DNA from: Terriglobia bacterium
Lineage (GTDB): Bacteria; Acidobacteriota; Terriglobia; 20CM-2-55-15
DNA length: 64,000 bases
Direction of reading: 5' to 3'
NCBI GenBank assembly: GCA_965218585.1
Contig: CBDCLE010000009.1
Span: 64,001-128,000 of the forward strand
In this document: positions 257-20,899 of the stretch, piece by piece
Position numbering within the stretch: position 1 is the first letter of the stretch
Layout: each line of letters starts with the position of its first letter
The notes under the pieces: model-generated
The model's database searches: none
The model's input: the letters and a program-made list of their open reading frames with translations, nothing else
What the model was told of the DNA's origin: nothing
Position numbers and translations under genes: made by a program

Positions 257-392
257 CGCCTCGTGAACTGGCCTGTGTGCGGTTGTCGGTCGTCCGTGCT
301 TTCGGCTTCGAACTGCACCTGATACGTTCTTCGAACAGGGACGTTTGCGACTTCGAAAGCCGCCACGTCCGTTTACCCAGAATCGATCGTTT

Positions 393-1880
393 TCAGAACG
401 ATGCCGGGACCACCCGAGCAGCCAGATAGAAGACTACAAGGGAAACCAGCGGAATGATTAACAGCGTAATCGCGATTCCGCCCTTCACCATCCGTCCCAT
501 CCGCACGTAGCCGCTGGCGAACACCATTGCGTTGTACGGCGTGCCGATGGGCAGCGGAAACGCCATCGAAGCGGCCACGCCGACGGCGACCAACAACGGT
601 ATCGGATCGATCCCGGCCGAAGAGCCAATGCCCTGTACCAGAGCTCCGACCATCCCGACTGCCGCGATATTTGACACGAAACTGGTCATCACGACGGTGA
701 ACGTCACCAATCCGAACACGAAGACTATTTCCGAACCTGCCACTCCATTGAAGGCGATGATGCTCTGCTCAAAGAATTGCCCGAGTCCCAGGGTCGGGTC
801 GGCGAGGGTGTTGCCTAAAGCGAGAGCTGCGGCGATCAATGCCAGAGTTCCCCACTCCACGCCCTTAACAGCTTCATTCCAGGTCATGGCAAACTCGCGG
901 TTCTTCCAGTCCACTGGAAGAAGAAAAAGAACCGTCGCCATGATGATCGCCGTAACCGACCAACTGAGGTGTGTCGTCACCCAGACGCTCCATGGGTGAT
1001 CTCGTCCACCGGCCAGCAGCAGTGGAAGTACATCCGGAAGCAGCCAGAGCAGCATTGCCCCGATAAACACAAACGCCGAAAGCTTTTCTCCGAGTTTCCA
1101 TGGTCCGAGCTTTTTCAATTCGTCCTGAAGGAAAGACTCAGACAGCCACCGGTCCGGTCTCTCCGGTCGCAGGACATAGTGGATCACCCCGAACATCACT
1201 ACCAATCCAATCACCGACATCGGCACACAGATCACCATCCATTGAAGAAAGCCCACGCGATATCCGATTGAGTCTGCCAGGCCGATCGCGATCAGATTCG
1301 TCGGTGCACCAATCGGGGTGGCGATTCCACCCATCGTAGCGCCCCAGGCGATGGACAGGAACATAGCCTCCGGGTAACGGCTGCCTGGTTCCAAATTGAG
1401 CGTACTGACGAGTCCAAGTGCTATCGAAAGAAACACCATCGTGGTGATGACGTTCGAAAGCACAGGGCTCATGACTGCAGCGCCGACTCCGAATGCCATC
1501 AGGAGACGTCGTGGACTTCCACCGACCAGAGAGGAGCCCGCGATGTGGTACGCAATCCGGCGTGCAAGCCCATGCAACTTCACGGCATGACCAATGATGA
1601 ACGCTCCGAGGATAAATATGACGATCCAGTTGGACCAGGTGCTAAACGCGTCCTCTACCGAAAGAACCCCACAGAGGACGAGCATCGCTAACGCGAAAAG
1701 GGAAGTGGCCGGTATCGGGATTGTTTCAGAGAACCACCATGCGGCCGTCCAGAGGAAAATTCCCAGAGTCCGCATGCCTACAACCGTCACGCCATCCAAC
1801 GGAGGCGACAGGACCGATACAGCAAATAACAAAGGTCCCAGCCAAAGCCCGATCAGCTTCATGCGCTTCCTCCTGGACAA
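393..1880 (-). CDS. DASS/SLC13 family sodium:dicarboxylate/sulfate symporter
   Basis: About 12 TM segments; motifs ETIPIPATS, GGIATPIGAPTN, SN...AFPLPIGTPYNAMVF. Confidence 0.9.
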   Translation of the reverse strand: MSRRKRMKLIGLWLGPLLFAVSVLSPPLDGVTVVGMRTLGIFLWTAAWWFSETIPIPATSLFALAMLVLCGVLSVEDAFSTWSNWIVIFILGAFIIGHAVKLHGLARRIAYHIAGSSLVGGSPRRLLMAFGVGAAVMSPVLSNVITTMVFLSIALGLVSTLNLEPGSRYPEAMFLSIAWGATMGGIATPIGAPTNLIAIGLADSIGYRVGFLQWMVICVPMSVIGLVVMFGVIHYVLRPERPDRWLSESFLQDELKKLGPWKLGEKLSAFVFIGAMLLWLLPDVLPLLLAGGRDHPWSVWVTTHLSWSVTAIIMATVLFLLPVDWKNREFAMTWNEAVKGVEWGTLALIAAALALGNTLADPTLGLGQFFEQSIIAFNGVAGSEIVFVFGLVTFTVVMTSFVSNIAAVGMVGALVQGIGSSAGIDPIPLLVAVGVAASMAFPLPIGTPYNAMVFASGYVRMGRMVKGGIAITLLIIPLVSLVVFYLAARVVPASF

Positions 1881-2042
1881 TCTTCACCGATGTTGCCCGC
1901 AGAACCAGTGAGTTTAGAGCACTTTTCGAACCCCTGGGAGTCGAATTACCAAACCTCCACAGTCTGTTGAAATTTCTCGACATGATTGTGGGTTTACCAC
2001 ATACCGGACCGGGCTCTTGATGAGTAGTTTAGAATCAATTGA

Positions 2043-2128
2043 GCCTGGGTGGCGGAACTGGCAGACGCACCGGACTTAAAATCCGGAGTCCCTTACGGGA
2101 CGTGTGGGTTCGAGTCCCACCCCGGGCA
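2043..2128 (+). tRNA. tRNA-Leu (anticodon UAA)
   Basis: Acceptor stem GCCTGGG/CCCGGGC-A, anticodon arm CCGGA-CTTAAAA-TCCGG, long variable arm, T-arm GTGGG-TTCGAGT-CCCAC. Confidence 0.95.
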
Positions 2129-2139
2129 TTTCATTGCGA

Positions 2140-2385
2140 TTAGTTAGTCACATGACGTTTTTGTCGTTCATCGTCAAATTCGGCTGACTTCGTCCGAACT
2201 ATTCCCGTGGACTCATTGAGGTAGGCTTCCACTGCTTGTGCCGCCGCCTTCACATCGTCCTCGTTCGTGATGTTGTAGCGGTCGAAAATCGAACTGGTTG
2301 GTGTCCGCAGATCGCCATTGCGACTCGTTCAGGAACGCTAGCACGGACGAGATTGCGAACACCCGTTCGCCTGAAGTCGTGTGTC
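2140..2385 (-). pseudogene. Tyrosine recombinase/integrase C-terminal remnant
   Basis: HDFRRTGVRNLVRASVPERVAMAICGH, then a 1-nt frameshift, then TSSIFDRYNITNEDD; contains the H-x-x-R, GH and catalytic Y motifs; N-terminal part absent. Confidence 0.85.
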
Positions 2386-2553
2386 CTCAGCGAGACACGG
2401 TTGGTCGTCTGGGTGATAGCGGTCGCGATCGTGGAGGCTGGCTTCCTTAAGTTCGTCACCAACCTTCTTTCACCCGCCCCGCCTCAAATCGCGTCCAATC
2501 GGCTATATCTCCTTCTGTTTCAATGGAATGCTGCGACATCCGAAGCTCACCGA

Positions 2554-2645
2554 TTCTCAACGTCCGACAAGATCGTTTGCGAGGACTTGAGAATTTAATA
2601 GCGCCTAACTTACTCCGCTAGTATCCTTTACCGAGTTTTTCACGG
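2554..2645 (+). repeat. Island intergenic repeat copy R1 (right half)
   Basis: TTCTCAACGTCCGACAAGAT...GGACTTGAGAATTTAATAGC...TTACCGAGTTTTTCACGG matches the right halves of R2 and R3. Confidence 0.85.
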
Positions 2646-2669
2646 CTTTTCCAGCGACACACGTAAATC

Positions 2670-2714
2670 ATGCAATCCGGCGCCAAACTCGGCCACTACG
2701 AAATCCTGTCCCTT
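2670..2714 (+). pseudogene. 5' stub of a Ser/Thr kinase gene
   Basis: MQSGAKLGHYEILSL versus MESGTKLGHYEILDL at 12274; shared upstream CGACACAC. Confidence 0.8.
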
Positions 2715-2749
2715 AAATCCCCCGTGCGACGGCCTGTGGCCACGCGCCA

Positions 2750-2778
2750 GGTTTACATAACGCCGCATTATCATGACG
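2750..2778 (-). other. dif-like (XerC/D) site candidate
   Basis: Minus strand reads CGTCATGATAA-TGCGGCG-TTATGTAAACC. Confidence 0.45.
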
Positions 2779-3033
2779 TTCTCACCGCTGCCATAGTCGT
2801 CGCGCACTGCTTGAAAGGCTTATCCGCAGAATCCAACCACATATAATACCCGCTAGAATCGGAGGTTTTTCGACGGCTATTACGTCTTCTTTGATTAGAA
2901 GTGTGTGGGAACGCTCTGAATCATGAGAGGCGGCTAAAAATTACCCATTGAGCATTATTCCTAGGAAAATGAGCTACTGTTACAAATCTATAATTGATAC
3001 AATACCTGCAATCTCAAGTAGCAGGAGGCTATC

Positions 3034-3342
3034 TTGAAAGTCCAGCTGAAACAGCGAGACTTGGCTATTGTCAGTGATGCACTGATGCTGTTTGTGCCAA
3101 GTGCGCCTCGCCGAAGACGACTTTTTCGTGAAACCTCTCGAATGTTCCAAGAGGCAGAAGCGAGTCAAGATCTCGAAGTGAGCCCGACCCATCTTGAAGC
3201 AGCACTGGATGCTGTAAAGGCGTATGCAAGACAAGTGCCAGAGCACCGACGAAATAGAGTAGAGGATGCTACAGCAACGATCCTTGAGATGCTGTTTCGT
3301 CAACATAGATCCTCATTTTCAGGGGGGAGTTTCACCACGTGA
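3034..3342 (+). CDS. Hypothetical helical protein, paralogous to an internal domain of the downstream EAL/HDOD protein
   Basis: AGGAGG RBS upstream; ungapped similarity including LEAAL to the 4343 ORF. Confidence 0.75.
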   Translation: MKVQLKQRDLAIVSDALMLFVPSAPRRRRLFRETSRMFQEAEASQDLEVSPTHLEAALDAVKAYARQVPEHRRNRVEDATATILEMLFRQHRSSFSGGSFTT

Positions 3343-3496
3343 ATTGCTCCCCTGAGGGTCCGGCAGTCTCTTTTTTTGCGTTCAGGCTGTCGGACCCAAA
3401 AGATTTCAGAGAAGGTGTTCTGTCCAGGGTGATCCTCAGAGAAACTGCCTTTTAGAAAACCCGTGATGACTTGCTCGGAATTCATAAGTGAACTAG

Positions 3497-4306
3497 GGCG
3501 TGTTAACACTACGTAGTCCTCGACGATGAGTGCGAAGTGAAGGAAGGCGAGGAACATGACGTCGAGTTTATCGAAACGGGAAAAGATACGCCGAAAACCC
3601 TTGAGTCGGCGGAAGAGCCTCTCGACTTCGTTCCTGCGGCGGTAGAGCACGCGGTCGTATTCCCACGGCTCCAGGCGGTTGCGCTTGGGCGGCACGACGG
3701 GAATCCACCCAAAATCCAGAGCCAATTGGCGGGTCTGGTCGTCCTGGTAGGCACGGTCCATCAGCAGCGGCAGCGGCGCGGGCAACGGCCCCAGGCCGGC
3801 GAGCAGATCGCGGCCCTGCGGGGCGTCGTGCGCTTGGCCGGGCGAGAGCGCAAACGTTATCGCCGTTCGAGCATTCGCGGCAACCAGATGAATCTTGGTG
3901 GTCCATCCACCGCGGGATTTGCCGATCGCTTGCGGACCGTTTTTTTTAACGCTCCCGTGCCGTCGGGATGCACCTTCACAATGGTCGAGTCCATCGAAAC
4001 GGCTTCCACCCGGATGCGCACCAGTTGCTCGCGCTGGAGTTTTTCGAAGACGGCGTCGAGCACCCCGTTCTTGGACCAGCGGTTCATCCGGGTGTAGATG
4101 GTGTGCCAGTTGCCAAAGCGCTTGGGCAGACCGCGCCACTTGCAGCCCTGCTCAGCCACATACAAAATGGCGTTCAAGACCGTCAGGTTCGAAAGACTGA
4201 CGTTGCCCCGCTGACGCGGCAGTTCCGGCTCGATGCGACAATACTGCTCCTGTGTGATCTCCATGCCTGATTATAAAACATTCATGCTCATTAGTGTTAA
4301 CACGCC
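3497..4306 (-). mobile_element. IS5 family (IS427-like) element with a two-ORF frameshifted transposase
   Basis: TIRs GGCGTGTTAACACT/AGTGTTAACACGCC flanked by CTAG (exact TSD length ambiguous); GCKWRGLPKRFGNW, SRGGWTTKIH, RNEVERLFRRLK; A-run slip site at about 3940. Confidence 0.92.
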
Positions 4307-5664
4307 CTAGACAAGGTTCATCATCTGTTCAAATGGAAACTTGTGTCCGACACTGGTGCCGAATCGGAACAGAGATCTCAATCGCGCTTCTGGATCCGGG
4401 GCACTAGTAAGGATAAACCCGACGGCTTCGTATTCGAAGCGATTGGTGCGGTTTGCTACATACGGACAGCGAAGCAGTATGGTGTTGACAGTTGGATGGA
4501 AGCAGCCAACACACTTGGGTTGTCGGACATTGATGCCAGAGACTTGTGTGCTGCCTCAAACGACTCGACCTGGCGGACCATGGATGGACGGCGCGAGCCA
4601 GATCCACGATTGCAGTCGCTAAGGGAACAACTGGCGGAAGCAGTTCGTCTCAGAATATATATAGAGCCCAAGTTAGTCCTCCGCTTCAGCCAGGAGGAAT
4701 TGGTTGTTGTCGTCGGTGCGTTAGTTTCATTTCCTATCACCCAGCCTGAACAGGGTCAACCGTATTTGCGGGCACTGAATGCATTCCGAAGGGCAGCCGG
4801 CTTTCAACCCTTCGAGGCGACTCTCGAAAACCTTGAAGCCGCATTACGAGCGCTGGTCTCTCATAGGGACCGAGTGGCTCCCGAGCAACGCGATGCCATA
4901 GAAAGCGTTGCGGCCAAGATTGCCAGTATTTCATTGGCTCAATCTCGACCTAGGGTGGATCGTCAGGCGGATGAAGTATTCATCAACAGGCATCCGATCT
5001 TTCAGTCGAATCTCAATACTTTCGCCTACGAACTGCTTGCCGAAAGGGAAAATGCGACCGGCTATCTCGTCGTCACCCAAACCATCCTGGACAGGTTCAC
5101 AGACCAAGGACTGGATCAGTTCGTGGGCAATCGGCTGGCGTTCATCAGTGTGTCGCAGGGAGCCATTAAGGCCGGCCATTGCGATGCTATGACCAAGGAA
5201 CGCACGATTCTGGAAGTGCTCGACGGCGCCGAACCGGACAAAGACCTGTTCCGCGCACTGACGAAACTCTTCAATCAGGGTCATCGGATCGCTATAGCGG
5301 ATTCGCTCATACGGTGGAGCGACTATCCACTAGCCTCAATAGCGAACGTCATCAAGTTCGATCTTGCGGATCTCGGAAGGCTTGCCATCGAAAACCGTCT
5401 AGAAACCCTTAAGGAAGTTAAATCACAGTTATTGGCGGATCACGTGGAAACTCATGACGATTTTGAATTTGCTCGTGGTGTGAGCTTTGATTATTTTCAA
5501 GGCTCCTTTTTCTGCAAGCCCCACATTACGGGCCAAGTTATTCCGGTCAACCGCCTGGCCACGATGCACTTGCTGGTACGAGTACGAGATCCTGAAGTTG
5601 ACCTTCAAGAACTGGGAGAAATGATCAGCCAGGATTTGCCACTAGCTTTCAAGTTGCTCGAGTT

Positions 5665-7029
5665 GAGGTCGTTCCAATCGGTGTGTAAAAAGAGAAGGCG
5701 GTGTACGCTTTCGGTGAATCCGAAACCGTAAGCAATCCCGGCAGCAACCGGGAGAAAGGTACACCACCCATGAAGAAGAAGAACATACCGGCATCAGTGG
5801 CGTCAACGAACGCGTATGAAGGTTTGGAGGACTGGGCGCGATCCCGGGTCCAAGTCTGGCTACAGGAGCTGCTCGAGGACGAAGTCACTCAATTTCTGGG
5901 TCGGGAAAAGTTGGAGCGGAGTCCGAATCGACGAGGATACCGGAACGGTCACGGGAAACCGCGACGCTTCGCAATGATGAACGGTACGATGGAGGTTCGA
6001 CGACCTCGGGTTCGAAACACCGCCGAGCGGTTCGAGAGTCAGATCCTGCCGTATTTTCGACGGAAATCGAAACAGCTGGGCGAGCTACTTCCCGATCTCT
6101 ACCTCCACGGCCTGGCCACAGGGGACTTCGAGCAGGCCATGCGCGGACTGCTTGGCGCTGGCGCTCCGTTGTCGCGAGCATCGATCCAACGACTGAAATC
6201 GACCTGGCAGTTGGAGTATGACGAGTGGGTCCAGCAGGACCTGTCCGGCCTCGAGGTCGTGTACCAGTGGGCAGACGGCTTGTACGTGAAAGCGGGGATC
6301 GCGAAAGAGCGAGCGGCATTGCTGGTGATCATCGGAGCCTTGTCAGACGGGCGCAAAGTGCTGTTGGCCTGTGAGAGCGGGCAGCGGGAAAGCAAGGAGT
6401 CCTGGAGCCGCATTCTGCGCAATCTCCAGAGACGGGGCCTGAAGCTGGGACGGCTGACTGTCGCGGACGGTCACCTGGGCATCTGGTCCGCGCTGGCCGA
6501 GCAACAGCCCCAGGGCCAGGAACAACGCTGCTGGAACCACAAGTCGATCAACGTGGTCGATCATCTGCCGAAGACCGAGCAGCCCGCGGCCAGACAGCTG
6601 CTTCATGGGATGGCCTTCGCGAACTCCCGCGCGGCCTGCGAACGAAAGCGGGATCAGTTCGTCCGCCGATATGAGAAGAACTATCCCAAAGCGGGTGAGA
6701 CGCTGTTGCGGGACTGGGACCGGATGATTACTTTCTATGAGTTCCCGAAACAACACTGGGTGCATCTGAGAACAACCAACATCGTCGAGTCGCCTTTCGA
6801 CATGGTTCGCCTCCGCACCAACGCCGCTCGCCGATTCAAGCGTGTCGAGAGTGCAACGGCAATGATCTGGAAGCTACTACGTGTCGCTGAGAAGGCTTGG
6901 CGACACTTAAAAGGATCCGAACTCTTACAAGAGGTCTATGATGGTCAGCAATTCGCTGACGGCATCAGAGTCGTGATGAAATCGAAGGCCGCCGCCTGAT
7001 GACTTTTACACACCTTTTGTAATGACCTC
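5665..7029 (+). mobile_element. IS256 family element, copy 1 (transposase ORF 5701-6999, likely start 5770)
   Basis: TIRs GAGGTCGTTCCAATCGGTGTGTAAAA/TTTTACACACCTTTTGTAATGACCTC; WADG, ADG, QRCWNHK, RTTNIVES. Confidence 0.93.
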
Positions 7030-7186
7030 ACTCGGCAACCTTACTGGTGCGAAGATCCGAGATCGTTACCTGGATTCGGTAAGCTGGGCTCAAACGCATG
7101 CCGAAGGGCTGAGCATCTGAAGAGCTTGTAGATTGTTTGCCATTGGCTGGCGGCTTAGGGGAAGTTAGCGGAGACGAAGATGACGG

Positions 7187-7322
7187 TTCAAGTCCTGTTA
7201 AATCATCTTGTCGGACCTTGAGAACCCCCGTTTTTAGGCCTTTCTCACTGTCCAACGATGTCGTCTCCCAGGACTTGAGAATTTAATAGCACCTAACTCA
7301 CTCCTCTAGTATCTTTTACCGA
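7187..7322 (+). repeat. Island intergenic repeat copy R2
   Basis: TTCAAGTCCTGTTAAATCATCTTGTCGGACCTTGAGAA, then an inverted unit and tail. Confidence 0.85.
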
Positions 7323-7442
7323 AACACGCAGAACGACGCCAACCACATCCACAGCGTGTGGCGCGACTTCAACGGCGATTTCGGCGAGGACCTGCTGGCC
7401 TCCCAATACCGGGCGCACCCGCATCTCGCGCCGGAGGAATAG
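7323..7442 (+). pseudogene. C-terminal stub of a DUF3500-like protein
   Basis: [25 protein letters not shown]...; begins abruptly at the truncated end of R2. Confidence 0.7.
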
Positions 7443-7457
7443 AGGAGGAATACAGCT

Positions 7458-8729
7458 ATGTCGATTCGATTCCCAGCACTCGTGATCACGCTACTCGCGC
7501 TCGTGCCCTCGACCTTATGGTCGCAGGCGGCAGACGGCCCCGAGGCGCGCTGGACGATCCTGCACGCCGGCACGGTGCTCCCAGTTCCTGGAGAGCCACC
7601 GCTGACCCAGCAGTCGGTCGTCATCCGGGGCGATCGGGTCGACCGGCTCCTCCCCGGCTATGCGACCGCCGAGTCCCTCGGCCTCGATCCGGCCGGGGTC
7701 GACGTGATCGACCTGACGGAGTATTTCGTCCTGCCGGGCCTCATGGACATGCACGTGCACCTCACCGGCGGAGCGCCCAGCGGGGTTCCGTCCGAGGCCG
7801 CCGACCTGTACCGCCTCACGGGGGGCATCGTCAACGCCCGCCTGACGCTGCGGGCCGGCTACACGACGGTGCGCAACCCCGGCTCGACGGGATGGTCGAT
7901 CTTCGCGCTGCGCGACGGCGTCGAGGCCGGCGATCTCGAGGGCCCGAGGATGTTCGTCGCGGGGCACACGATCCGCAGCTCTGCCAGCGACGGCTCGGGA
8001 TCCTGCTACAGCGTGGAGAGCTGCCATGAGGCGGTGCGGCGCCAGATTCAGATGGGCGCCGATCTGATCAAGGTCTACGTAACCTGCAGCGGGACCGACC
8101 CCTGCGCCCACCCGGACGCGCCGGCCCTCTTCCTCAAGGACGAGCTGGTCGCCGCCGTGGAGACAGCTCGGACGCGCGAGCTGAAGGTGGCGGCACACGC
8201 CCATACGACCGCCGGCATCAACCTGGCGCTGGAGGCCGGGGTCGACTCGATCGAGCACGGCTCCTGGCTCGACGAGCGCTCCTACGAGCTCCTGGGTCAG
8301 ACCGGCGCCTACCTCGTGCCGACGCTGGCAGTGAAGGAGGTCATGCGGCAGAGGCTCGACCAACAAACGCCGGAAAATCGCGCACGGCTCGAGGCCTCTA
8401 TCAGGGAGCACCCGCGGAAGGTCTTCAAAGCTTTCCAGGCCGGCGCCAAGATTGCGTCGGGCAGCGACGCCACGGGCTCGCGGAATGGCGAGAATGCGCG
8501 CGAGCTCGAAACCTACGTCGACATCGGCCTGACCGAAATGGAAGCGATCGTCACCGCGACGGTCAACGCGGCGGCGCTGCTGGGCGAAGCCGACCTGGGC
8601 ACGCTCGAGGCCGGCAAGTTTGCGGACGTCATCGCCGTATCGGAGAACCCGCTCGAGAACATCTCGGCGTTGACCGACGTCGACTTCGTCATGAAGGGCG
8701 GCACCGTCTACGTGACCCTTCGCGACTGA
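7458..8729 (+). CDS. Secreted amidohydrolase (Xaa-Pro dipeptidase-like)
   Basis: Signal peptide; PGLMDMHVH, GYTTVRN, AHAH, SIEHG, GSDA, GKFADVIAV. Confidence 0.9.
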   Translation: MSIRFPALVITLLALVPSTLWSQAADGPEARWTILHAGTVLPVPGEPPLTQQSVVIRGDRVDRLLPGYATAESLGLDPAGVDVIDLTEYFVLPGLMDMHVHLTGGAPSGVPSEAADLYRLTGGIVNARLTLRAGYTTVRNPGSTGWSIFALRDGVEAGDLEGPRMFVAGHTIRSSASDGSGSCYSVESCHEAVRRQIQMGADLIKVYVTCSGTDPCAHPDAPALFLKDELVAAVETARTRELKVAAHAHTTAGINLALEAGVDSIEHGSWLDERSYELLGQTGAYLVPTLAVKEVMRQRLDQQTPENRARLEASIREHPRKVFKAFQAGAKIASGSDATGSRNGENARELETYVDIGLTEMEAIVTATVNAAALLGEADLGTLEAGKFADVIAVSENPLENISALTDVDFVMKGGTVYVTLRD

Positions 8730-8770
8730 AGGTCAGGCATCGCGTCGGCGAGCGGTCTGCGCGGTGACAA

Positions 8771-8931
8771 CCGTGAAATCCATTCTCAGCGCCCGATAAA
8801 TCATCTTGTCGGACGTTGAGAACCACTGTTTTTCAGGCCTTTTTCACTGTCAGAGACGGTCGTTTAACGGGAGTTGAAACTTTGATCGCGTCTAACCCCT
8901 CCCTCAGTATTCATTATCGAGTTTTTCACGG
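8771..8931 (+). repeat. Island intergenic repeat copy R3 (most complete, 161 bp, ends CCGTGAAA/TTTCACGG)
   Basis: Terminal inverted octamer plus the internal ATCATCTTGTCGGACGTTGAGAA unit. Confidence 0.85.
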
Positions 8932-9634
8932 CTCGCTCTCCCAGTCAGGGCCGCAAGCTAAGGTCAGAGGGTGTTACCATCCCTGCTTGCCTGTAACAGC
9001 GATCTATAGCGGAAGGTTCCCATGGCCTTGATCACTCGTCGAGCCTTCCTTGCGCAGTCGGCTCGGGCGGTCGGCGGTGGCCTCTGTGCGTTCGAGGCGC
9101 TACAGTTGGTCGCGTGCGAACGGGGAACGCCAATCGCTCCTTCCATCGGCTATGGGCCGCTCCAAGAGGCCGGTCCCGAGCTGGCGTTACCTACAGGTTT
9201 CCAGTACCGCGTGTTCGGGGTTGAGGGATCGACCATGTCGGACGGACGGCCCACGCCTTCAAGGCATGACGGCATGGCGGCATTCCCACTTCCCAACGGC
9301 AACATTCGCCTTATCCGCAACCACGAGGTCAGCAATGAGCCGCAGAGTGGAGCCGCATTCGGCAACCTCGGGCGGGCATACGACTCGCTGGCGGGCGGGG
9401 GGACCACCTCGCTCGAGATCAACCCCGTGACACGCGAAGTCGTTCGCGACTTCGCGAGCCTCTCCGGGACCATGCGAAACTGCGCCGGCGGACCCACGCC
9501 GTGGCAGTCATGGCTTACCTGCGAGGAGCACTTCGGCGATCAGCGGCAAGGCTATCAGCAACCGCACGGCTATGTCTTCGATGTCCCAGTGTCCGCGGAA
9601 CAGGACGTGCCGGCAGTACCGTTCCGCGCCCTAG

Positions 9635-9756
9635 CAGCCTGTCGGACTAACACCAAATCAATAATCTAAGTCATTCATATGACCGTGTTTACAGTTTCGA
9701 GCTGAAAAGGGCCGTCGTTGAAAACAAAGGACTTACGCCGAAAGTCCGACAGGCTG
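9635..9756. mobile_element. MITE (122 bp) with 14-bp TIRs, flanked by CTAG
   Basis: CAGCCTGTCGGACT ... AGTCCGACAGGCTG. Confidence 0.85.
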
Positions 9757-9760
9757 CTAG

Positions 9761-11302
9761 GAGTCTGCGCGGCAGAAGGACCGAAATTGGGCGGGAATGG
9801 ATGGAAGATAGGGCATGCCACGAACTTACCGAGCCTATATTCCAGAACAGAGCCTGCTGATGCCACCGTCGCTGAGCGATTGGCTGGCCGAAGATCACCT
9901 GTCGTACTTCATATCGGATGCTGTGGACGCGATGGATTTGAGCGGGTTCGAACAGAGGCATGGAACTGACGGGCCTGGCAATCAGGCCTTCGATCCGCGG
10001 ATGATGGTGAAGGTGATGATCTATGGGTACGGGACCGGAGTGTTTTCATCCAGGAAGATCGCAGCGAAGTTGAGAGAAGATGTGGCGTTCCGGATGTTGG
10101 GAGCCGAGAACTTTCCCGCGCACCGAACGATCTCGGATTTTCGCAAACTGCATCTTGAGGAGTTCGGGAAGCTGTTTGTGCAAGTGGTGATGATGGCGCG
10201 AGAAGCGGGTTTGGTGAAGATGGGGACGGTAGCGGTGGACGGAACCAAGATGCGGGCGAATGCGAGCAAACGCAAAGCGATGAGCTATCAACGCATGAAG
10301 AAGCAGGAGACCGAGTTGGGTGAGCAGATTCGGGATCTGTTGAACCGGGCGACCGCGACCGATGAGGACGAAGACCAGCGTTACGGCAAGGACCGGCGCG
10401 GAGACGAACTACCCGACGGGTTGGCGACCCGTAAGAAGCGTCTGGCCACGATCCAGGCGGCGATGAAGCGACTCGAGGAACGTCAGATGGCTGCGGACCA
10501 GGAAGCCGGACGGAAACCGGGAGACGACGAACCGGGAAGCGGAAAGAAGGGCAAGCCATTCAAACGCCCCATGGGCGAGCCCAAGCCCAAGGCCCAGGAG
10601 AACTTCACCGATCCAGAAAGCCGGATCATGAAGACCTCCACGGAAGGGTTCCAGCAATGTTACAACGCGCAGGCGATGGTGGATTCCGAGGCCCGGATCA
10701 TCGTGGCGACCACGGTGAGCGACAATGCGTCGGATGTGGGGCAGTTGGAGCCGACTCTGGATGCGGTGAACAACAACCTGGGAGAGTCTCCAGGCCGCGT
10801 GCTCGCTGATGCGGGGTATCGATCCGAGTCGAATCTGGGGATGTTAGAACAACGCCAAATTGATGGGTATGTCGCCATGGGGCGGGAGAAGGACCTGGAC
10901 GATGCCCCCCTCCCGCCACAAGATACCGCGCTTGGTCGGATGACGAGAAAAATGAAATCCCCGTCTGGGCGTGATCGCTACCGGGCCAGAAAGCACATTG
11001 GTGAACCGCCCTTCGGGTGGATCAAATCGGTGCTCGGATTCCGACAGTTCAGTCTGCGAGGTTTGGACAAGGTGACCTGTGAGTGGAACCTGGTGACTCT
11101 AGCAGTGAACTTACGACGGATGAACGGGAAGATCGAATGGGCCTAATCCGGAAAACCGGGACCGCCACCCTTATCACACGGCTTACTACTGGAGTCCGCA
11201 CCGGTCTGAGTTCATCATAACGGCAGAATCGGTCCGGTCGCCTCCGACAACACGATCAAATCCCAATAAATCCAGGTTCTTTCCGCTCTGCCGCGCAGAC
11301 TC
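9761..11302 (+). mobile_element. IS1182 family element (transposase 9815-11146)
   Basis: TIRs GAGTCTGCGCGGCAGA/TCTGCCGCGCAGACTC with CTAG flanks; SSRKI, HRTISDFR, VDGTK, TDPESRIM, ADAGY. Confidence 0.93.
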
Positions 11303-12060
11303 CTAGGGCGGTTTGTTCACGAGGCCGTCGCCGTCGATCCCGCGACGGGGATCGTCTACGAAACCGAAGATCAAAGACAGGCCGGCTTCTATCGCTTCGT
11401 TCCAGACAGGCCCTACCGACCGGGAGAGCGTCCTGATCTTACGAGCGGACGCTTGCAGATGCTGGCCGTGCGGGATCAACGGCAGTACGACGCGGGAACC
11501 GGGCAGAGTCCAAGAGCTGTGCTCCCCGTCGGCTGGCTGGACATCCCCGACCCGGACCCTGTTGGGGAGGCCGTCACGGTGAACGCTGTCTTCCAGCAAG
11601 GATGGGATCAAGGTGGAGCGCGGTTCGCCAATGTCGAAGGCTGTTGGTATGAGGACGGCGCTATCTACTTCGCCTCCACCAACGGGGGCGATGCCGGAGA
11701 GGGCCAAATCTGGCGCCACCGTCCGGGAGCGGACGGCGGAGACCTCACGCTGGTGTTTGAGTCTCCGGGACCGGACGTTCTCAAGCGCCCGGACAACATT
11801 TCTACTACACCCAAGGGGGCGTTGGTCATATGCGAAGACGGGCCCGGCTCGTGTTTCCTCCGTGGCCTGACCCGCGAGGGCGAGATCTTCGATTTCGCCC
11901 AGAACATCGCGAACGACTACGAACTCGCCGGAGCCACGTTCAGCCCGGATGGGCAGACGTTGTTCCTCAACATCCAGGAGGCTGGACAGACGGTGGCAAT
12001 CTGGGGACCGTGGGAGTCTGGCCCTTTCTAGCCGACACTGGGGCCCCACCCTGACATAGA

Positions 12061-12116
12061 ATCAACATCGTCCTGAACTTGTTTGAAGAACTGAAAGAAC
12101 GGGTCCGGTTCCCTAA
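12061..12116 (+). pseudogene. 3' stub of a Ser/Thr kinase-beta-propeller gene
   Basis: INIVLNLFEELKERV versus INIVLNWFQELRERVPVP at the end of the 14761-16323 ORF. Confidence 0.8.
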
Positions 12117-12120
12117 ACGA

Positions 12121-12249
12121 CCATGAAAATGATTCTCAACGCCTGTTAAATCATCTTCTCGGACGTTGAGAATTGGCGAACTACTAAGCGCTGACAGTTT
12201 TCTTGCTAATAAATCCCACCTGTAGTTGAATTTACAAAGAATTTCACAG
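12121..12249 (+). repeat. Island intergenic repeat copy R4
   Basis: CCATGAAAATGATTCTCAACGCCTGTTAAATCATCTTCTCGGACGTTGAGAA ... TTTCACAG. Confidence 0.8.
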
Positions 12250-12273
12250 TTCAGTTAACGACACACTAAAACG

Positions 12274-15200
12274 ATGGAATCCGGCACCAAACTCGGCCAT
12301 TACGAGATCCTGGACCTCCTGGGCAAGGGGGGAATGGGAGAAGTGTGGCGTGCGCGAGACACGAAACTCGGGCGCGAGGTTGCGATCAAAACGCTACCTG
12401 AAGAGTTTGCCAAGGATGCAGATCGGTTGGCACGCTTTGAGCGTGAAGCGAAGTTACTTGCGTCACTGAACCATCCGAACATTGGCGCGATCCACGGGTT
12501 TGAAGAAGACAACGGAACACACTTCCTTGTTCTCGAACTCGTTGAGGGCGACACGCTGGCTGATCAGATCAAGCGTGGGGCGATCCCTGTTGAGGAGTCG
12601 CTGAAACTCGCTCTTCAAATCGCCGAAGCCTTAGAAACAGCACATGAGAAGGGTGTCGTCCACCGTGATTTGAAACCGGCGAACATTAAAGTTACGCCCG
12701 TGGGTAGGGTCAAGGTCCTCGACTTTGGCTTGGCAAAAGCGTTTGCGGAGGCGGGGCCAAGGTCAACGGCGTCTACTCTAACCCTGACAGGAACAGAAGC
12801 CGGAGTAATCCTGGGAACTCCCGCCTACATGAGCCCAGAACAAGTGCAGGGTCAAAAGGTTGATAGGCGAACCGACATTTGGGCTTTCGGGTGCGTGCTG
12901 TTTGAACTCTTGGCTGGAAGGCGCTCCTTCGACGGAAAGACTGTCGCCGACCTTTGGGCTTCGATCCTCAACACCGAGCCGGATTGGACGAGTCTGCCAA
13001 GGAATCTCCACCCAAGAATCCGTCTGATGCTGGAAAGGTGTCTGGAGAAGGAAGCTAGAAGCCGTTATCACGACATTTCGGACGCAAGGGTAGACATCGA
13101 GAAGGTGCTAGCCGATCCGAGCGGCGTGTTTGTGCAGTCCGGTACTGAAGCTGCGCAGGCAGCGCCGCAGGCGAAACTGCCTTGGATTGCGGCCTTCCTT
13201 TTGGGACTGGTCATCGCTGGCGTGGCCGTCTGGAACCTGAAACCCATACCGAATCCTCCCCTCGTCACCCGCTTTGATCACAAGTTATCCGAAACACTGA
13301 GCTTTAGGAATATGGGTCGGTTAGGCATCGCAGTCTCCCCGGATGGCCGTCAGGTCGTTTACAACACCACAGAAGGCGTGTATCTCCTCTCTATGGACGA
13401 ACGGAGGTCGTTCCAATCGGTGTGTAAAAAGAGAAGGCGGTGTACGCTTTCGGTGAATCCGAAACCCTAAGCAATCCCGGCAGCAACCGGGAGAAAGGTA
13501 CACCACCCATGAAGAAGAAGAACATACCGGCATCAGTGGCGTCAACGAACGCGTATGAAGGTTTGGAGGACTGGGCGCGATCCCGGGTCCAAGTCTGGCT
13601 ACAGGAGCTGCTCGAGGACGAAGTCACTCAATTTCTGGGTCGGGAAAAGTTGGAGCGGAGTCCGAATCGACGAGGATACCGGAACGGTCACGGGAAGCCG
13701 CGACGCTTCGCAATGATGAACGGTACGATGGAGGTTCGACGACCTCGGGTTCGAAACACCGCCGAGCGGTTCGAGAGTCAGATCCTGCCGTATTTTCGAC
13801 GGAAATCGAAACAGCTGGGCGAGCTACTTCCCGATCTCTACCTCCACGGTCTGGCCACAGGGGACTTCGAGCAGGCCATGCGCGGACTGCTTGGCGCTGG
13901 CGCTCCGTTGTCGCGAGCATCGATCCAACGACTGAAATCGACCTGGCAGTTGGAGTATGACGAGTGGGTCCAGCAGGACCTGTCCGGCCTCGAGGTCGTG
14001 TACCAGTGGGCAGACGGCTTGTACGTGAAAGCGGGGATCGCGAAAGAGCGAGCGGCATTGCTGGTGATCATCGGAGCCTTGTCAGACGGGCGCAAAGTGC
14101 TGTTGGCCTGTGAGAGCGGGCAGCGGGAAAGCAAGGAGTCCTGGAGCCGCATTCTGCGCAATCTCCAGAGACGGGGCCTGAAGCTGGGACGGCTGACTGT
14201 CGCGGACGGTCACCTGGGCATCTGGTCCGCGCTGGCCGAGCAACAGCCCCAGGGCCAGGAACAACGCTGCTGGAACCACAAGTCGATCAACGTGGTCGAT
14301 CATCTGCCGAAGACCGAGCAGCCCGCGGCCAGACAGCTGCTTCATGGGATGGCCTTCGCGAACTCCCGCGCGGCCTGCGAACGAAAGCGGGATCAGTTCG
14401 TCCGCCGATATGAGAAGAACTATCCCAAAGCGGGTGAGACGCTGTTGCGGGATTGGGACCGGATGATTACTTTCTATGAGTTCCCGAAACAACACTGGGT
14501 GCATCTTAGAACGACCAACATCGTCGAATCGCCCTTCGACATGGTTCGCCTCCGCACCAACGCCGCTCGCCGATTCAAGCGTGTCGAGAATGCAACGGCA
14601 ATGATCTGGAAGCTACTACGTGTCGCTGAGAAGGCTTGGCGACACTTAAAAGGATCCGAACTCTTACAAGAGGTCTATGATGGTCAGCAATTCGCTGACG
14701 GCATCAGAGTCGTGATGAAATCGAAGGCCGCCGCCTGATGACTTTTACACACCTTTTGTAATGACCTCGGACGAACTGGATGCCAGACTTATTCCGGGGA
14801 CCGAAGGGAACCTAAACAACTTAATGTTTTCGCCCAATGGTGAGTGGTTGGCTTACTTGTCTGACGGGCAGTTGCAGAAGATAGCCGTTAGTGGTGGTGC
14901 ATCTGTGGCGCTGGCAGACGTGGTCGGCAACTTTTTTGGTGGGAACTGGCAGGCGGACGGCACGATTCTGTTTTCGGCACAACCGGGACACGGGGCGATC
15001 ATGAGAGTTTCTGCAAACGGAGGAACTCCTGAAACGCTTTTCGAGCTAAGCTCGGAAGGGATTTTTAGTACAGCCTATCCGCAGTTGTTGCCAGACGGAG
15101 ATTCCGTGCTGTTTACCTTCCTTGGTACAGAGGGAACGCAAATCGCAATACAGTCCCTCGGATCTGGGGAGACTGAAGTGCTTTTCGCTGGAATCGGCGC

Positions 15201-16323
15201 TCGCTATGTTCCCACCGGCCACATCGTTTATGGGTTGGAAAGTACGCTATTCTCCGTTCCATTTGACCTAGGCACGCTTGAAACGCTTGGCGGGCCCGTT
15301 CCTGTTGTCGACGGTGTCCTTGGTACCGCCACCGTTTTACAGTTCGGCATATCGGACGGCGGCACGCTTGCTTATATTCCGGGTTCGGCGGTAGCCGCAG
15401 AGCGATCGCTTCTCTGGGTTGATCGAGCAGGCATGGAAGAGGCGCTGACGGCAGAACCTCTCGGCTACGAATACCCTCGAATCTCCCACGATGGACAACG
15501 AGTGGCTGTAGATGAGGCGAACCAATTTGGGGATATCAAGGTCTGGAACTTCGCAAGCAAAAACCTCGTCAGGCTAACATCTGGTGGAGGCGCGGATCTT
15601 TACCCAGTGTGGACGTCGGACGACCGGCAGATAGCATTTGGCTCCCAGCGATCAGAATCAAGCAACGTCATCTATTGGAAATCCGCCAACAACACAGGGG
15701 TTGTGGAGCCGCTCACTCCCGCCTTGGGTAACGGTACGCAACCTCCGAACCCGTATTTCTTTGCTGCTGAGGATCAGGTATTGGTCTTTAGAGAACAAGA
15801 GCATCCAGATACTGGAGACAACATTGGAATCATTTCGTTGGAAAGCGATTCGGAACCAGTTTGGCTATTAGCCAGCCAGTTCGACGAAAGAAACGCAGAG
15901 TTGTCACCAGACGGAAACTGGATGGCCTACCAGTCGGATGAATCAGGTCAACACGAAATTTACGTCCGGCCATTCCCGAACGTCGAAGATGACCTACGGA
16001 GAATATCTACAGCCGGTGGGTTTAGTCCTCTCTGGGCACGAGACGGACAGGAACTGTTTTATATCGAGCCCGGTACGCCACGACACCTTATGGTCGTTCC
16101 GGTCCAGACCGATCCGACGTTTGAACACGAGGTCCCTCTGGAACTGCTGGAGTGGCCTTATTTCTTAGGTAACGAAGGTCGGGCATACGATGTCTCACGG
16201 GATAGCGAGCAGTTTCTCGCTATCAAAGGGAATAGTAACGAAATCGACGAAGAAGATCGTCCACAAATCAACATCGTCCTGAACTGGTTCCAAGAGCTGC
16301 GCGAGCGCGTGCCGGTGCCGTAG
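12274..16323 (+). pseudogene. Hanks-type Ser/Thr kinase with TM helix and TolB/PD40 beta-propellers, split by IS256
   Basis: GKGGMG, AIK, HRDLKPAN, DFG, YMSPE; SPDG repeats; rejoins as SMDELDARL after IS removal. Confidence 0.92.
13404..14768 (+). mobile_element. IS256 family element, copy 2 (near-identical to copy 1)
   Basis: Same TIRs; 8-bp direct repeat GGACGAAC at 13395-13402 and 14769-14776. Confidence 0.93.
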
Positions 16324-16327
16324 ATGA

Positions 16328-16380
16328 CCGTGAAATTGATTCTCAAGTTCTGTTAAATCATCTTGTCGGACGTTGAGAAA
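16328..16380 (+). repeat. Island intergenic repeat copy R5 (left half)
   Basis: CCGTGAAATTGATTCTCAAGTTCTGTTAAATCATCTTGTCGGACGTTGAGAA. Confidence 0.85.
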
Positions 16381-16483
16381 CGGCGAGCTTCGGAATCCCC
16401 GTCCACTTTTCCCCAATAGTCTGGCTATACTGCCCCACGGCCTCTTGTTGGTTCCTAGCCGCAGTAACAGAGAAAGGACAGAC

Positions 16484-16969
16484 ATGGCATTTGAAGCTCA
16501 ACTTCAACGGCAGATCATGGGACGGTTCGCAACGGGTGTGACGGTGGTGACCACCCGGTATGGCGATGGAGCAATTACAGGGATGACGGCCAATGCGGTA
16601 ATGTCGCTTTCTCTGGATCCGCCGCTTGTTGTGGTCTCAGTGGATAAGAAAGCGATGATCTATGGATGTTTGAACGATGGGCAGTGTTACGCAATCAATA
16701 TCCTGACCCGCGATCAGGAAGATTTATCGACACGTTTTGCCACACCGGGACCGAAAGACTTATCGGACCTGGAGTGGACTGAGTCCCAGACCGGGGCGCC
16801 GATTCTTAAGGACACGCTGGGATACCTAGACTGCAAGTTGACAGGCGTCCTGCCGGCAGGGGATCACGATATGTTTGTCGGTGAGGTTGTCGCAGGTGAT
16901 CTCGGTGAGGGGGTGCCCCTTCTCTTTTATAACGGGAAATATAGGGAGCTTGGGGAACAAGAAGACTAG
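16484..16969 (+). CDS. Flavin reductase (HpaC/RutF-like)
   Basis: GRFATGVTVVT, SLSLDPPLV, AGDHDMFVGEV; AGGA RBS before ATG 16484. Confidence 0.92.
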   Translation: MAFEAQLQRQIMGRFATGVTVVTTRYGDGAITGMTANAVMSLSLDPPLVVVSVDKKAMIYGCLNDGQCYAINILTRDQEDLSTRFATPGPKDLSDLEWTESQTGAPILKDTLGYLDCKLTGVLPAGDHDMFVGEVVAGDLGEGVPLLFYNGKYRELGEQED

Positions 16970-17041
16970 TGGTGTTGATATGCCCAATGAATGACCCGCT
17001 CTCAGAGCCCACCGACCTTTACCAGGGACCTCCAATCCCTT

Positions 17042-17100
17042 CCGGATTTAGAATCCGGTGTCCCTCACCGGGCGTGCGGGTGCGATACCCGCCCCAGGCG
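17042..17100 (+). pseudogene. Degenerate 3' half of tRNA-Leu (anticodon UAG), att-like duplication
   Basis: CCGGA-TTTAGAA-TCCGG, variable arm, GCGGG-TGCGATA-CCCGC, CCCAGGC; no 5' half. Confidence 0.8.
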
Positions 17101-17126
17101 TTTCGTTGAAACCGATTGGTCTTATA

Positions 17127-17165
17127 ACGTTTTTTCGTTCATCGTCGAATTCGATTAACTTCGCC
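17127..17165 (-). pseudogene. Second integrase C-terminal tail remnant
   Basis: Similar to 2156-2195; both translate as EFDDER. Confidence 0.65.
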
Positions 17166-17255
17166 TGAAACAGCCTGTGGATCAAGGCGAGTCGTTGGTG
17201 AGGAGGCCGAATGAGGTTTTTCGGGTTGCCGTACAGGGAAATGTTTGACAGACCG

Positions 17256-18241
17256 ATGCGTTTGATGAGAGTTGCGTGTGTCGTCCTGCTGGTGTCCGCT
17301 TGCACTCCGCCGGAAGAAGGAGATAGCGCGGTCGAAGCACCCGCCCAGATCGTGAACATCACCGGTGAGCTGTATGAAGTGCGGTCCGGCACTCACAAAG
17401 CCGTGTTTCTGGTGACGCCGGAGGGAATCATATTGAGTGATCCCACCAACCTGGAAGTCTCCGAATGGCTCAAGGCGGAGTTTGCACGGCGTTTCGATCA
17501 GGCCGTGACGTATGTGATCTACAGTCACCATCACCCCGATCATGTCGCAGGCGGCACGGCGTTTGCCGACACGGCCACGTTCGTGGCGCACGAAAATGTG
17601 ACCAGTGCGCTCGCGGCGCCGCTTCCGAGCAACGCGGCGACCCTGGACCAGAACGGGGACGGGCAGCTCGATCGGTCCGAGGCGACGGCACTCGGGTATG
17701 GCGGGCAGAACTTCGACCGCTATGACCGAAACGGGGACGGCACCATGACGGGGGTGGAGATCAATGCCGAAACACCGGTGCCCGACATCGTGTATTCCAC
17801 AGACATGACGATCACTCTGGGCGGCAGCTCGGTGGAGTTGATGCATCCCGGCCGGGCGCACTCCGACGACATGACGGTTCTATTCTTCCCCGACCAGCGC
17901 GCCCTGTTCGCCGTAGACTTCATGCAGGTCGAGCGTTTTCCGGCGACTCTGGGGGATATCCCCTCGCCAGTTACGTGGATGCGATCGCGAAAGTGCAGGC
18001 CTTTGACTTCGATATCGCCATTCCGGGCCACGGTGACGTCGGGGAAAAGGCGGACGTAGCCCTCTTCCTCGAGTTTCTTCGGGCGCTCGACACTGCAGTG
18101 GCAGAGGGGATCGCCGAGGGGCGAAGCCTCGATGAGATGCGCGAGAACCTGTCTTTTCTCGGCTATGAGGACTGGCTTCGCTACGAGACCCAGCGGGCCA
18201 ACTTGATCACCGAAACTTACGAGCTCTTGACCCGACCGTAG
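17256..18241 (+). CDS. MBL-fold metallo-hydrolase lipoprotein with an EF-hand insert; frameshift in the G-run at 17951-17955; start uncertain
   Basis: LVSAC lipobox, SHHHPDH, GRAHSDD, IPGHG; DQNGDGQLDRSE and DRNGDGTMTGVE. Confidence 0.8.
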
Positions 18242-18298
18242 CCGGGACCCCTCGATTGCCTTAGGGCTATGTGGCCAACCCAGGCAGCGTTCGATCGA

Positions 18299-19573: not shown

Positions 19574-19632
19574 GACGAGACCCTGAGCCTCCCTAGGTAA
19601 GGGTAGAATGGTGGATCCGGCTCTCGGGAGGC

Positions 19633-20880: not shown

Positions 20881-20899
20881 CACTACCTGCGCAGTCACG

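Follow-up and report, generated by a model that had tools for sequence, protein, structure and literature searches.

The stretch of DNA considered here, termed the window, spans 64,000 nucleotides of contig CBDCLE010000009.1 (positions 64,001 to 128,000) from the genome of a Terriglobia bacterium. Close to its left end, beside a tRNA-Leu gene, copies of a palindromic repeat built around a short hairpin lie between genes of diverse kinds. An initial annotation of this region had described five such copies separating co-oriented cargo modules in a cassette-like array, and had suggested that the repeat might be the recombination site of an integron-like system or a miniature inverted-repeat transposable element (MITE) that nucleates recombination. 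Here, the repeat and its surroundings were considered in the source genome (G000; a 4.55 Mb assembly in 26 contigs) and in four congeners (G001 to G004).

A profile hidden Markov model prepared from six copies of the hairpin was searched against the whole G000 assembly, with window positions corresponding to contig coordinates minus 64000. Forward hairpins are referred to as class A and inverted hairpins as class B. In the window, seven matches were obtained at five loci, namely, 2542-2604 (minus strand), 7180-7234 (plus), 7231-7292 (minus), 8771-8834 (plus), 8835-8890 (minus), 12121-12184 (plus), and 16328-16391 (plus). The five copies of the initial annotation are all present where it had placed them, and all five loci have the same unit polarity, as it had described:

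2456 to 2645, plus strand: repeat locus 1, with a conserved left extension, a class B hairpin at 2554-2594, and a right-hand part ending TTTTTCACGG
7187 to 7322, plus strand: repeat locus 2, with a forward hairpin at 7188-7224, an inverted hairpin at 7242-7278, and a right-hand part cut at ...TTTTACCGA
8771 to 8931, plus strand: repeat locus 3, the full unit, with CCGTGAAA, a forward hairpin, an inverted hairpin, and TTTTTCACGG
12121 to 12249, plus strand: repeat locus 4, with a forward hairpin at 12132-12172 and the upstream region of a kinase gene
16328 to 16394, plus strand: repeat locus 5, with a forward hairpin at 16339-16380, 5 nt past a kinase-PD40 stop codon

At locus 3, direct reading of the sequence shows the core hairpin and, for the full unit (8771-8931), the CCGTGAAA/TTTCACGG ends, in agreement with the initial annotation. 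At this locus, CCGTGAAA is followed by the forward hairpin, a spacer of ~17 nt, the inverted hairpin, ~50 nt and, finally, TTTTTCACGG. Locus 1 comprises the inverted hairpin and the right-hand part without the forward hairpin, and only the forward hairpin is found at loci 4 and 5. Together, loci 1 and 5 form a 56-nt inverted repeat enclosing 13.8 kb. The statement that no copy occurs in the remaining ~47 kb holds for the window only, as the next copy on the contig lies beyond it.

The core of the repeat is an imperfect palindrome of ~43 nt (41-45 nt) with ~16 bp, two bulges, and a near-invariant central AAATCATCTT. From the outside in, TTCTCAA pairs with TTGAGAA, then GTCC with GGAC, followed by five pairs around the 6-nt centre. 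Across all 70 forward copies, on which the G000 counts of placement, neighbors, and proximity to insertion sequences (ISs) rest, this ~43-nt stretch is the sole conserved block, and its most conserved portion is the centre of the palindrome. The stem is maintained, with 79% of cells paired, as compared to 33-44% in slid registers.

The Hairpin Flanks a Kinase/PD40 Gene Family

The forward hairpin was found 5-20 nt past the stop codon of a Ser/Thr-kinase/PD40 paralog family. In many copies, the last kinase/PD40 codons (...NWFEELKERVPVP, followed by the stop) lie no more than 15 nt before the hairpin. G000 contains 46 such tails, of which 21 are followed by a hairpin and only 3 end a long open reading frame (ORF), and in the arrays of G001, the tail is present at 19 of 31 hairpins. 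Orphan stubs beside hairpins retain 16-76 residues (18 cases) and have no common left boundary. At the other end of the gene, the class B hairpin and a conserved 60-nt right-hand part are found upstream of kinase starts. Indeed, 13 of 14 kinase starts, be they intact or stubs, share the upstream region, with an inverted hairpin in most, and in the same 13 the first 45 nt of the coding sequence are almost identical. A further 100-140 nt beyond the inverted hairpin is conserved in five copies, i.e., at window positions 2456-2553 and at C2:547370, C5:5756, C9:142313, and C4:202328. The opposite strand of this left extension contains a Shine-Dalgarno-like motif and a possible ORF of ~20 codons (MRDIA...).

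Given this conservation of stubs and upstream regions, the unit can be defined as left extension, inverted hairpin, upstream region, kinase-PD40 gene, and forward hairpin, in that order. The window reads as four such kinase units in tandem, with the kinase having been replaced in three. The other features of this segment are:

2043 to 2128, plus strand: tRNA-Leu(taa), the island integration site (ARAGORN; Rfam tRNA, 59.2 bits)
2070 to 2198, plus strand: left att-like direct repeat, consisting of the 3' 59 nt of the tRNA and 70 nt more (76% identity to 17042-17169)
2150 to 2483, minus strand: frameshifted C-terminal remnant of a tyrosine integrase (PF00589, 18.3 bits, E 0.004; box II-like recombinase motif in stop-to-stop frames)
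2671 to 2720, plus strand: orphan kinase 5' stub (MQSGAKLGHYEILS...), aligned to other kinase starts
3491 to 4310, minus strand: 820-bp IS (DDE_Tnp_1; Pfam)
4343 to 5664, plus strand: EAL-like ORF cut by IS256 (Pfam EAL, 25.8 bits, below the cut-off of 31.3; IS256 end at 5665)
5665 to 7029, plus strand: IS256-family element (Transposase_mut) with 26-nt terminal inverted repeats
7317 to 8763, plus strand: GC-rich amidohydrolase module (gene at 7458-8729; Pfam/NCBIfam), duplicated on another contig
9022 to 9669, plus strand: PhoX-like gene fragment (Pfam PhoX profile positions 3-230 of 515)
9757 to 11306, plus strand: IS5-like element with perfect 20-nt terminal inverted repeats
12060 to 12116, plus strand: orphan kinase/PD40 3' stub (...INIVLNLFEELKERVRFP and stop), assigned by sequence comparison
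12274 to 16323, plus strand: Ser/Thr kinase-PD40 gene (Pfam Pkinase, PD40), split by an IS256-like copy at 13404-14768
16419 to 16969, plus strand: flavin reductase gene, with orthologs elsewhere in all four congeners
17042 to 17169, plus strand: right att-like direct repeat, a partial tRNA-Leu 3' end

An Rfam scan of positions 1-20000 (E<=1) returned the tRNA as its sole match, the repeat matching no family. The first three units hold, respectively, the 5' stub together with an IS and the EAL-like fragment; the amidohydrolase; and the PhoX fragment with the IS5-like element and the 3' stub. In the fourth, the kinase is retained and is split by IS256; the two ORFs recognized here in the initial annotation are parts of this one gene. 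Genes do lie between co-oriented copies, as had been reported, although the modules are broken by four ISs. The reported difference in module composition was likewise seen, with a GC content of 0.62-0.70 across the amidohydrolase versus 0.52-0.55 across the kinase. As to the proximity of repeats to an upstream stop codon, the distance is 42 nt at 8771 and 5 nt at 16328, whereas the stop before 12121 is that of an orphan gene stub.

Distribution of the Hairpin in the Genome and the Genus

In G000, 95 profile matches were distributed over 20 of the 26 contigs, such that the repeat is not private to the tRNA-Leu locus. Copies lie nearly all between ORFs, with 5 of the 70 forward copies falling inside a crude ORF of at least 150 aa. 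Clustering is strong, the median distance between neighbors being 2.8 kb, as opposed to 65 kb under uniform spacing. Genome-wide scatter in random orientation, as of an ordinary MITE, had been set against the cassette proposal; the scatter was observed, whereas the orientation is not random, with 39 of 44 neighbor pairs within 5 kb being on the same strand. The gene upstream of the hairpin is co-oriented with it in 45 of 70 cases.

A strict core pattern (24 nt, <=2 mismatches) was matched 51 times in G000, 138 times in G001, 92 times in G003, 7 times in G002, and once in G004, with the reversed pattern, used as control, giving 0 matches. In each of 36 other genomes of the family and class, 0-1 matches were obtained. 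The hairpin family is confined to the genus. Exact-match scans for the 24-nt core in public genome, metagenome, and viral contig collections, from which the source genome and its near relatives were possibly left out, gave 0 matches.

The genes carried in the arrays are diverse, including amidohydrolases, cupin, DUF6152, glyoxalase, methyltransferases, metallo-beta-lactamase fold, SnoaL, esterases, ankyrin, and an outer-membrane barrel, interleaved with transposases of the IS256, IS5, IS21, IS3, and other types. Downstream of an outer-membrane protein gene that is orthologous in G000 and G003, the hairpin units differ in orientation. Long kinase-PD40 ORFs (at least 800 aa) number 10 in G004, 6 in G003, 5 in G001, and 2 each in G002 and G000.

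Hairpins Are Found in Accessory DNA

The window segment is a decayed tRNA-Leu island of ~15 kb, with the tRNA at one end, a partial 3' repeat at the other, an integrase remnant, and an empty site in relatives. Of the tRNA and integrase that had been noted as neighbors of the array, the former indeed marks an island, while the latter survives only as a frameshifted C-terminal remnant. The right boundary is less certain, because flavin reductase, a core gene found elsewhere in relatives, lies inside the right end. In G004 and G001, tRNA-Leu is followed, after ~40 and ~800 nt, respectively, by orthologs of the genes at ~20.9-29.9 kb of the window, and no hairpin profile match was obtained in 48-kb stretches at these two empty sites. 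In G003, a 48-kb island lies between the tRNA and a second partial copy of it. This island contains 21 hairpin matches, many ISs, one intact kinase, and several kinase stubs, along with cargo unrelated to that of the window. The comparison of this locus in relatives that the initial annotation had recommended thus yielded empty sites in two congeners and different cargo with the same repeats in a third.

A second case was offered by the genes encoding peptidase M20 and leucyl-tRNA synthetase, which are 77-138 nt apart in G001, G003, and G004 and 6 kb apart in G000. The 6-kb insertion (C2:218340-224372) contains a toxin-antitoxin pair, an M14 peptidase, and a B12-radical-SAM gene, the last of these framed by a class B unit and by a tail plus hairpin. 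The radical-SAM gene seems to use a kinase start region, as judged from the resemblance of its first codons. The toxin-antitoxin pair is ribbon-helix-helix-like (by eye)/PemK. Taken together, the two cases indicate that hairpins travel with accessory DNA and are missing from empty sites.

Probable Targeting of the Hairpin by Insertion Sequences

An IS30-family element (HTH_38 and rve; ~1.25 kb) was found exactly in the loop of the hairpin at several sites, with a hairpin half on each side and a 2-3-nt duplication (C3:347509-348810, in L056, and C13:7040-8400; also C20:53628 and C11:73061). This suggests that the IS30-like element targets the palindrome in a site-specific manner. An IS110-family element abuts hairpins in G000 and G003. 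In addition, a 2.5-kb IS91-like element encoding a Y2 transposase and a tyrosine recombinase of ~300 aa was seen in G001 (L095-L100), where a hairpin lies at the same IS end in all six copies inspected, at a distance of no more than ~25 nt in five, and in either orientation. This element was considered as the source of the hairpin and rejected, since the hairpin lies outside the IS body (99.7-99.96% identical) and the numbers of the two do not track each other, with ~28 IS copies and 7 hairpins in G002 and no IS copies and 51 hairpins in G000. Both the attC sites of integrons and repetitive extragenic palindromic (REP) sequences are known targets of ISs. Of the 70 forward hairpins in G000, 30 have an IS of one of three abundant types no more than 3 kb away, versus 10.4 +/- 3.0 at random positions.

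A Model for the Cassette-Like Arrangement

It is proposed, at roughly even confidence, that the hairpin represents a new, genus-specific palindrome family resembling REP sequences and bacterial interspersed mosaic elements (BIMEs), tied to the flanks of kinase-PD40 units, which serves as portable homology and as an IS target, such that the arrays come to look like cassettes. The arrangement is unusual but is probably not an integron. According to this model, the hairpin would have become fixed after the kinase/PD40 stop, with an inverted copy before the start, in one sub-lineage of the genus, and the kinase units would have been amplified as tandem arrays within islands that are integrative and rich in ISs. 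The kinase genes, which are long and redundant, may have been struck repeatedly by insertions of foreign DNA and by deletions. What would remain are the unit ends, i.e., the upstream region with a 5' stub on one side and a 3' stub with the hairpin on the other, with unrelated cargo in between, giving the cassette look. The copies would provide 50-250 bp of co-polar, portable homology, and homologous (RecA-type) recombination between them could delete, duplicate, and exchange the intervening DNA and so move cargo. Entry of cargo would probably be by illegitimate recombination. The hairpin or cruciform may, moreover, serve as a target of IS30-, IS110-, and IS91-type elements, hastening turnover. 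The forward hairpin would presumably be transcribed together with the upstream gene as a 3' stem-loop.

Several observations weigh against this proposal. Conservation of the loop fits DNA or protein recognition better than it does a simple RNA stem-loop. Covariation in the stem did not exceed that of shuffles (0.088 versus 0.081, with 91 of 500 shuffles reaching the value). No U-tract follows the hairpin, and consensus scans called no terminator and no sigma-70 promoter within the units. In species whose orthologs share only ~78-80% identity, dozens of sites carry the same 24-nt core, which requires selection, homogenization by recombination, or recent spread. No dedicated enzyme for the hairpin was found, and "REP-like" describes the element without providing a mechanism. 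G004, with its 10 long kinase-PD40 ORFs, contains but one strict hairpin, and the spacers between its tandem kinases are hairpin-free. The hairpin is thus no inherent part of the gene family, and some means of spread must be assumed; it was, therefore, gained in the lineage of G000, G001, and G003 and then spread there. Finally, in G001, glyoxalase and GNAT acetyltransferase genes are each bracketed by co-oriented hairpins 0.55-0.7 kb apart and, in the case of the glyoxalase, with no kinase stub whatever, an arrangement with a cassette-like look.

The observations on folding bear also on a purely regulatory explanation, namely, that the hairpin is a 3' stem-loop that stabilizes or terminates mRNA and/or an operator of the downstream promoter, copied by gene duplication and kept by selection. 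Consistent with this, the hairpin is positioned shortly past the kinase stop and just before the conserved 5' region of the next gene, and its core is highly conserved across species. Each hairpin is predicted to fold at ~-12 to -20 kcal/mol, and in the inner 13 pairs, G.T outnumbers A.C by 41 to 16 in copies that are not independent of one another, a weak hint that the sense strand folds, since such an excess would be expected in that case. By contrast, z-scores of folding are modest (0 to -2.7), the stem is followed by GAGAA and variable bases, and the 20 terminator-like sites called in 2000-17500 all fall outside the repeats. As an intrinsic terminator, the hairpin is not canonical. Furthermore, no co-oriented gene precedes 25 of the 70 copies, orphan copies are retained next to dead stubs, and the tandem kinases of G004 do without hairpins. 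Regulation as the whole explanation is considered quite unlikely.

Should the proposed palindrome family tied to kinase units be the correct reading, a short palindrome at the ends of an expanded paralog family would make tandem arrays into "shells" in which foreign genes are trapped and shuffled and to which several IS families are drawn, an integron-like outcome reached without integron machinery in a little-studied, uncultured lineage of Acidobacteriota. Co-oriented palindromes between single genes would then also be insufficient for calling an integron or a cluster of attC sites lacking a nearby integron-integrase (CALIN).

Tests of an Integron-Like System

The presence of an integron integrase was considered using TIGR02249, with a cut-off of 265 bits. 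In G000, the best match scored 83.7 bits. Scores of 440-458 bits were obtained in G001 (L067:13239-14019), G002 (L071:14451-15395, minus strand), and G003 (C2:3040327-3041268), and intI pseudogene fragments were seen in G003 and G004. On the 3' side of intI in G002, a canonical attC array of the GCCTAAC...GTTAGGC type was found (L071:2974-12596; at least nine sites spaced 0.5-1.8 kb apart). In the 40 kb around each of the three congener intI genes, no hairpin match was obtained, even at E<=1. Nor do hairpin numbers track IntI, given that G000 lacks IntI and has 51 copies, while G002 has IntI and 7.

These results address the explanation that the hairpin is the crossover site of a site-specific cassette system, be it a non-canonical attC served by IntI in trans, as in a CALIN, or a lox/dif-like core for another tyrosine recombinase, with 17-nt arms around a 6-nt ATCATC and with genes excised as circles and reinserted at other copies. 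Several findings speak for this. Arrays are co-oriented, with a spacing of 0.5-3 kb, and include small genes typical of cassettes (glyoxalase, GNAT, cupin, SnoaL/DUF4440, and methyltransferases). At least two same-strand sites lie less than 4 kb apart, as in the clustering rule of IntegronFinder, between single, diverse, and mostly co-oriented genes with no integrase near; according to PMC4889954, a CALIN is an attC cluster without a nearby integrase, with sites less than 4 kb apart on one strand. The palindrome is most conserved at its centre, IntI scores above the cut-off in three congeners, and the hairpin is a target of three IS types, attC sites and REPs being known IS targets as well. 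The R''/R' boxes of attC have the consensus RYYYAAC ... GTTRRRY, and the right arm of the hairpin, GTTGAGA, matches the latter at six of seven positions.

Of 67 aligned copies, by contrast, 47 have a left arm that ends in AAG, the remainder having AAC there. The sequence and fold of the hairpin differ from those of the genus's own attC sites, there is no unpaired central spacer, and, at 41-45 nt, the hairpin is shorter than known attC sites. The boundaries of the cargo also vary. Paralogous cargo segments stop 32-448 nt before the hairpin and start 65-269 nt after it, with no pile-up, and the kinase stubs differ in length. The duplicate of the amidohydrolase module (1447 bp; 96.8% identical to C4:189526-190971) abuts repeat units in the window and is surrounded by unrelated DNA in the C4 copy, both flanking hairpins being excluded from it. 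The module starts within an upstream gene, and contigs of another sequencing run diverge at 7328. No match covering the module was found in the four congeners, with none at all in G001 and G003 and only 40-75-nt matches (E>=7e-5) in G002 and G004. The variable breakpoints and this duplicate are as would be left by illegitimate recombination, rather than by site-specific exchange.

Excision products were considered in Logan contigs of four runs over 7031-13403. Joints such as that of 7322 to 12261 hold a canonical unit between the two sides and were, therefore, assigned to paralogous copies; contigs of this kind cannot show rare circles.

The proposal that the repeat is an integron-like recombination site was thus not borne out, given the lack of IntI in G000, the canonical nature of attC in the congeners, and cargo breakpoints that are not fixed, and a site-specific cassette system is considered very unlikely. 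An equally low standing is given to an unrecognized, integron-independent cassette system with a lox/dif-like core of ~17-nt arms around an invariant, asymmetric 6-nt spacer and with ~50-140 copies per genome, served by a tyrosine recombinase of the host or island or by the IntI of relatives, with the kinase-PD40 gene as the founding and commonest cassette. Were the cassette explanation nonetheless true, it would reveal a second, independent class of gene cassettes. Either way, the genus offers a useful contrast, with true integrons bearing canonical attC sites alongside the hairpin family.

Comparison With REP Sequences and Mobile Elements

The hairpin shares with REPs the traits of a short, extragenic, imperfect palindrome present in many copies as singlets and inverted doublets. 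In PMC3733652, REPs and BIMEs are described as short imperfect palindromes outside genes, lineage-specific, in tens to hundreds of copies and often after genes, that occur as singlets and inverted doublets and in mosaics with other motifs. Unlike these, the hairpin has a longer stem and a conserved 6-nt centre and lacks the terminal GTAG/CGTC tag, its ends reading TTCTCAA and TTGAGAA, with CGTC lying 7 nt inside on the inverted strand. Moreover, its copies are found in accessory, IS-rich islands and not through the core genome, and are tied to the ends of one paralog family, many with stubs.

No REP-associated tyrosine transposase (RAYT) gene flanked by the hairpin was found. G000 contains two Y1_Tnp loci, of which that on C3 has no flanking repeat, while that on C10 (C10:114268-117597; L021) is flanked by different, 40-nt inverted repeats containing GGGGTCAGAGCCC, a motif present in 26 copies. 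The GGGGTCAGAGCCC repeat is a second, separate REP-type family. Across the genus, 18 Y1_Tnp loci yielded a single hairpin match, which does not flank the gene. An IS630-type (DDE_3) transposase is absent from G000. Three ORFs of 430-460 aa without Pfam matches that lie beside hairpins were considered as a hidden enzyme and rejected, as they are mutually unrelated, with one being permease-like by eye and another being a wrong-strand ORF in a multi-copy element.

These findings are pertinent to the idea that the hairpin, or the ~160-nt CCGTGAAA/TTTCACGG doublet, is a non-autonomous transposable element, i.e., a MITE or a REP doublet forming a hairpin (REPIN), that is moved in trans, with the kinase stubs being passengers of a few founders. 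Copy numbers ranging from 1 to 138 among congeners are typical of mobile DNA, the inverted doublets ~17 nt apart resemble REPINs, and bare hairpins are found beside unrelated genes. In addition, CGTC-type REPs are reported to occur without a dedicated transposase, and dRS3 is classed as a clustered CGTC-1 repeat, both according to PMC3733652. The absence of a matching Y1 or DDE_3 transposase in G000 speaks against this idea, as does the lack of a visible target-site duplication at the unit ends read; the ends of resident ISs do not match the unit either. The 8-nt CCGTGAAA/TTTCACGG ends are confined to a few full units, ends being otherwise heterogeneous, and no pair of copies is near-identical outside larger duplications, the best being 90-97% identical over 70-130 nt, versus 99% among IS copies. 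A transposable element of this kind is considered unlikely. Of the two suggestions in the initial annotation, a MITE that nucleates recombination nonetheless came closer, although a classical MITE was not supported, given that neither a cognate transposase nor a visible duplication was found and that full units are few.

Other systems offer partial likenesses. The dRS3 repeats and intergenic mosaic elements of Neisseria, Correia elements, and "minimal mobile elements" are small inverted repeats clustered between genes that serve as targets of ISs and phages and as portable homology, and in the Neisseria arrays, too, different genes lie between conserved flanks. The hairpin is, however, unrelated in sequence, and the conserved flanks are kinase unit ends and not neighboring core genes. 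Natural transformation is not known for this organism. The pdif (XerC/D) sites of Acinetobacter likewise bracket single-gene modules with short palindromic recombinase-type sites in many contexts, yet are 28 bp long (11-6-11) and in inverted orientation, whereas the hairpin is 41-45 nt (~17-6-17 by eye) and in direct orientation. Lastly, the segment of 15 kb between tRNA-Leu and a partial 3' repeat, with its integrase remnant and its empty or differently filled counterparts in relatives, resembles tRNA-integrated islands that grow by tandem accretion. Unlike in these, the internal hairpins are not att repeats of the island and occur also at non-tRNA sites.

In a narrow literature search that included Acidobacteria and repetitive extragenic palindromic sequences, no description of the element was found. 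It is unusual in being bound to both ends of a single paralog family, in the large number of gene-end stubs, and in that the genus has true integrons as well.

Further Features of the Island and of G000

The flavin reductase gene within the right end of the island has orthologs of 81-90% identity at unrelated places in the four congeners, in G001 at 14 kb from intI. Its presence in the island is a single-gene relocation. Beyond the right att-like repeat, window positions 17170-20926 (MBL/EF-hand, BNR, and SpoIIE-phosphatase genes) have no counterpart beside tRNA-Leu in G001, G003, or G004 and may be an older island remnant. The IS load of G000 is very high and comprises 59 full and 12 partial copies of the IS256-like element, 24 full copies of the 820-bp IS, and 9 full copies of the IS5-like element. 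Further types seen in this genome include IS21, IS3, IS110, IS1595, and DDE_Tnp_1_4, and many genes are broken.

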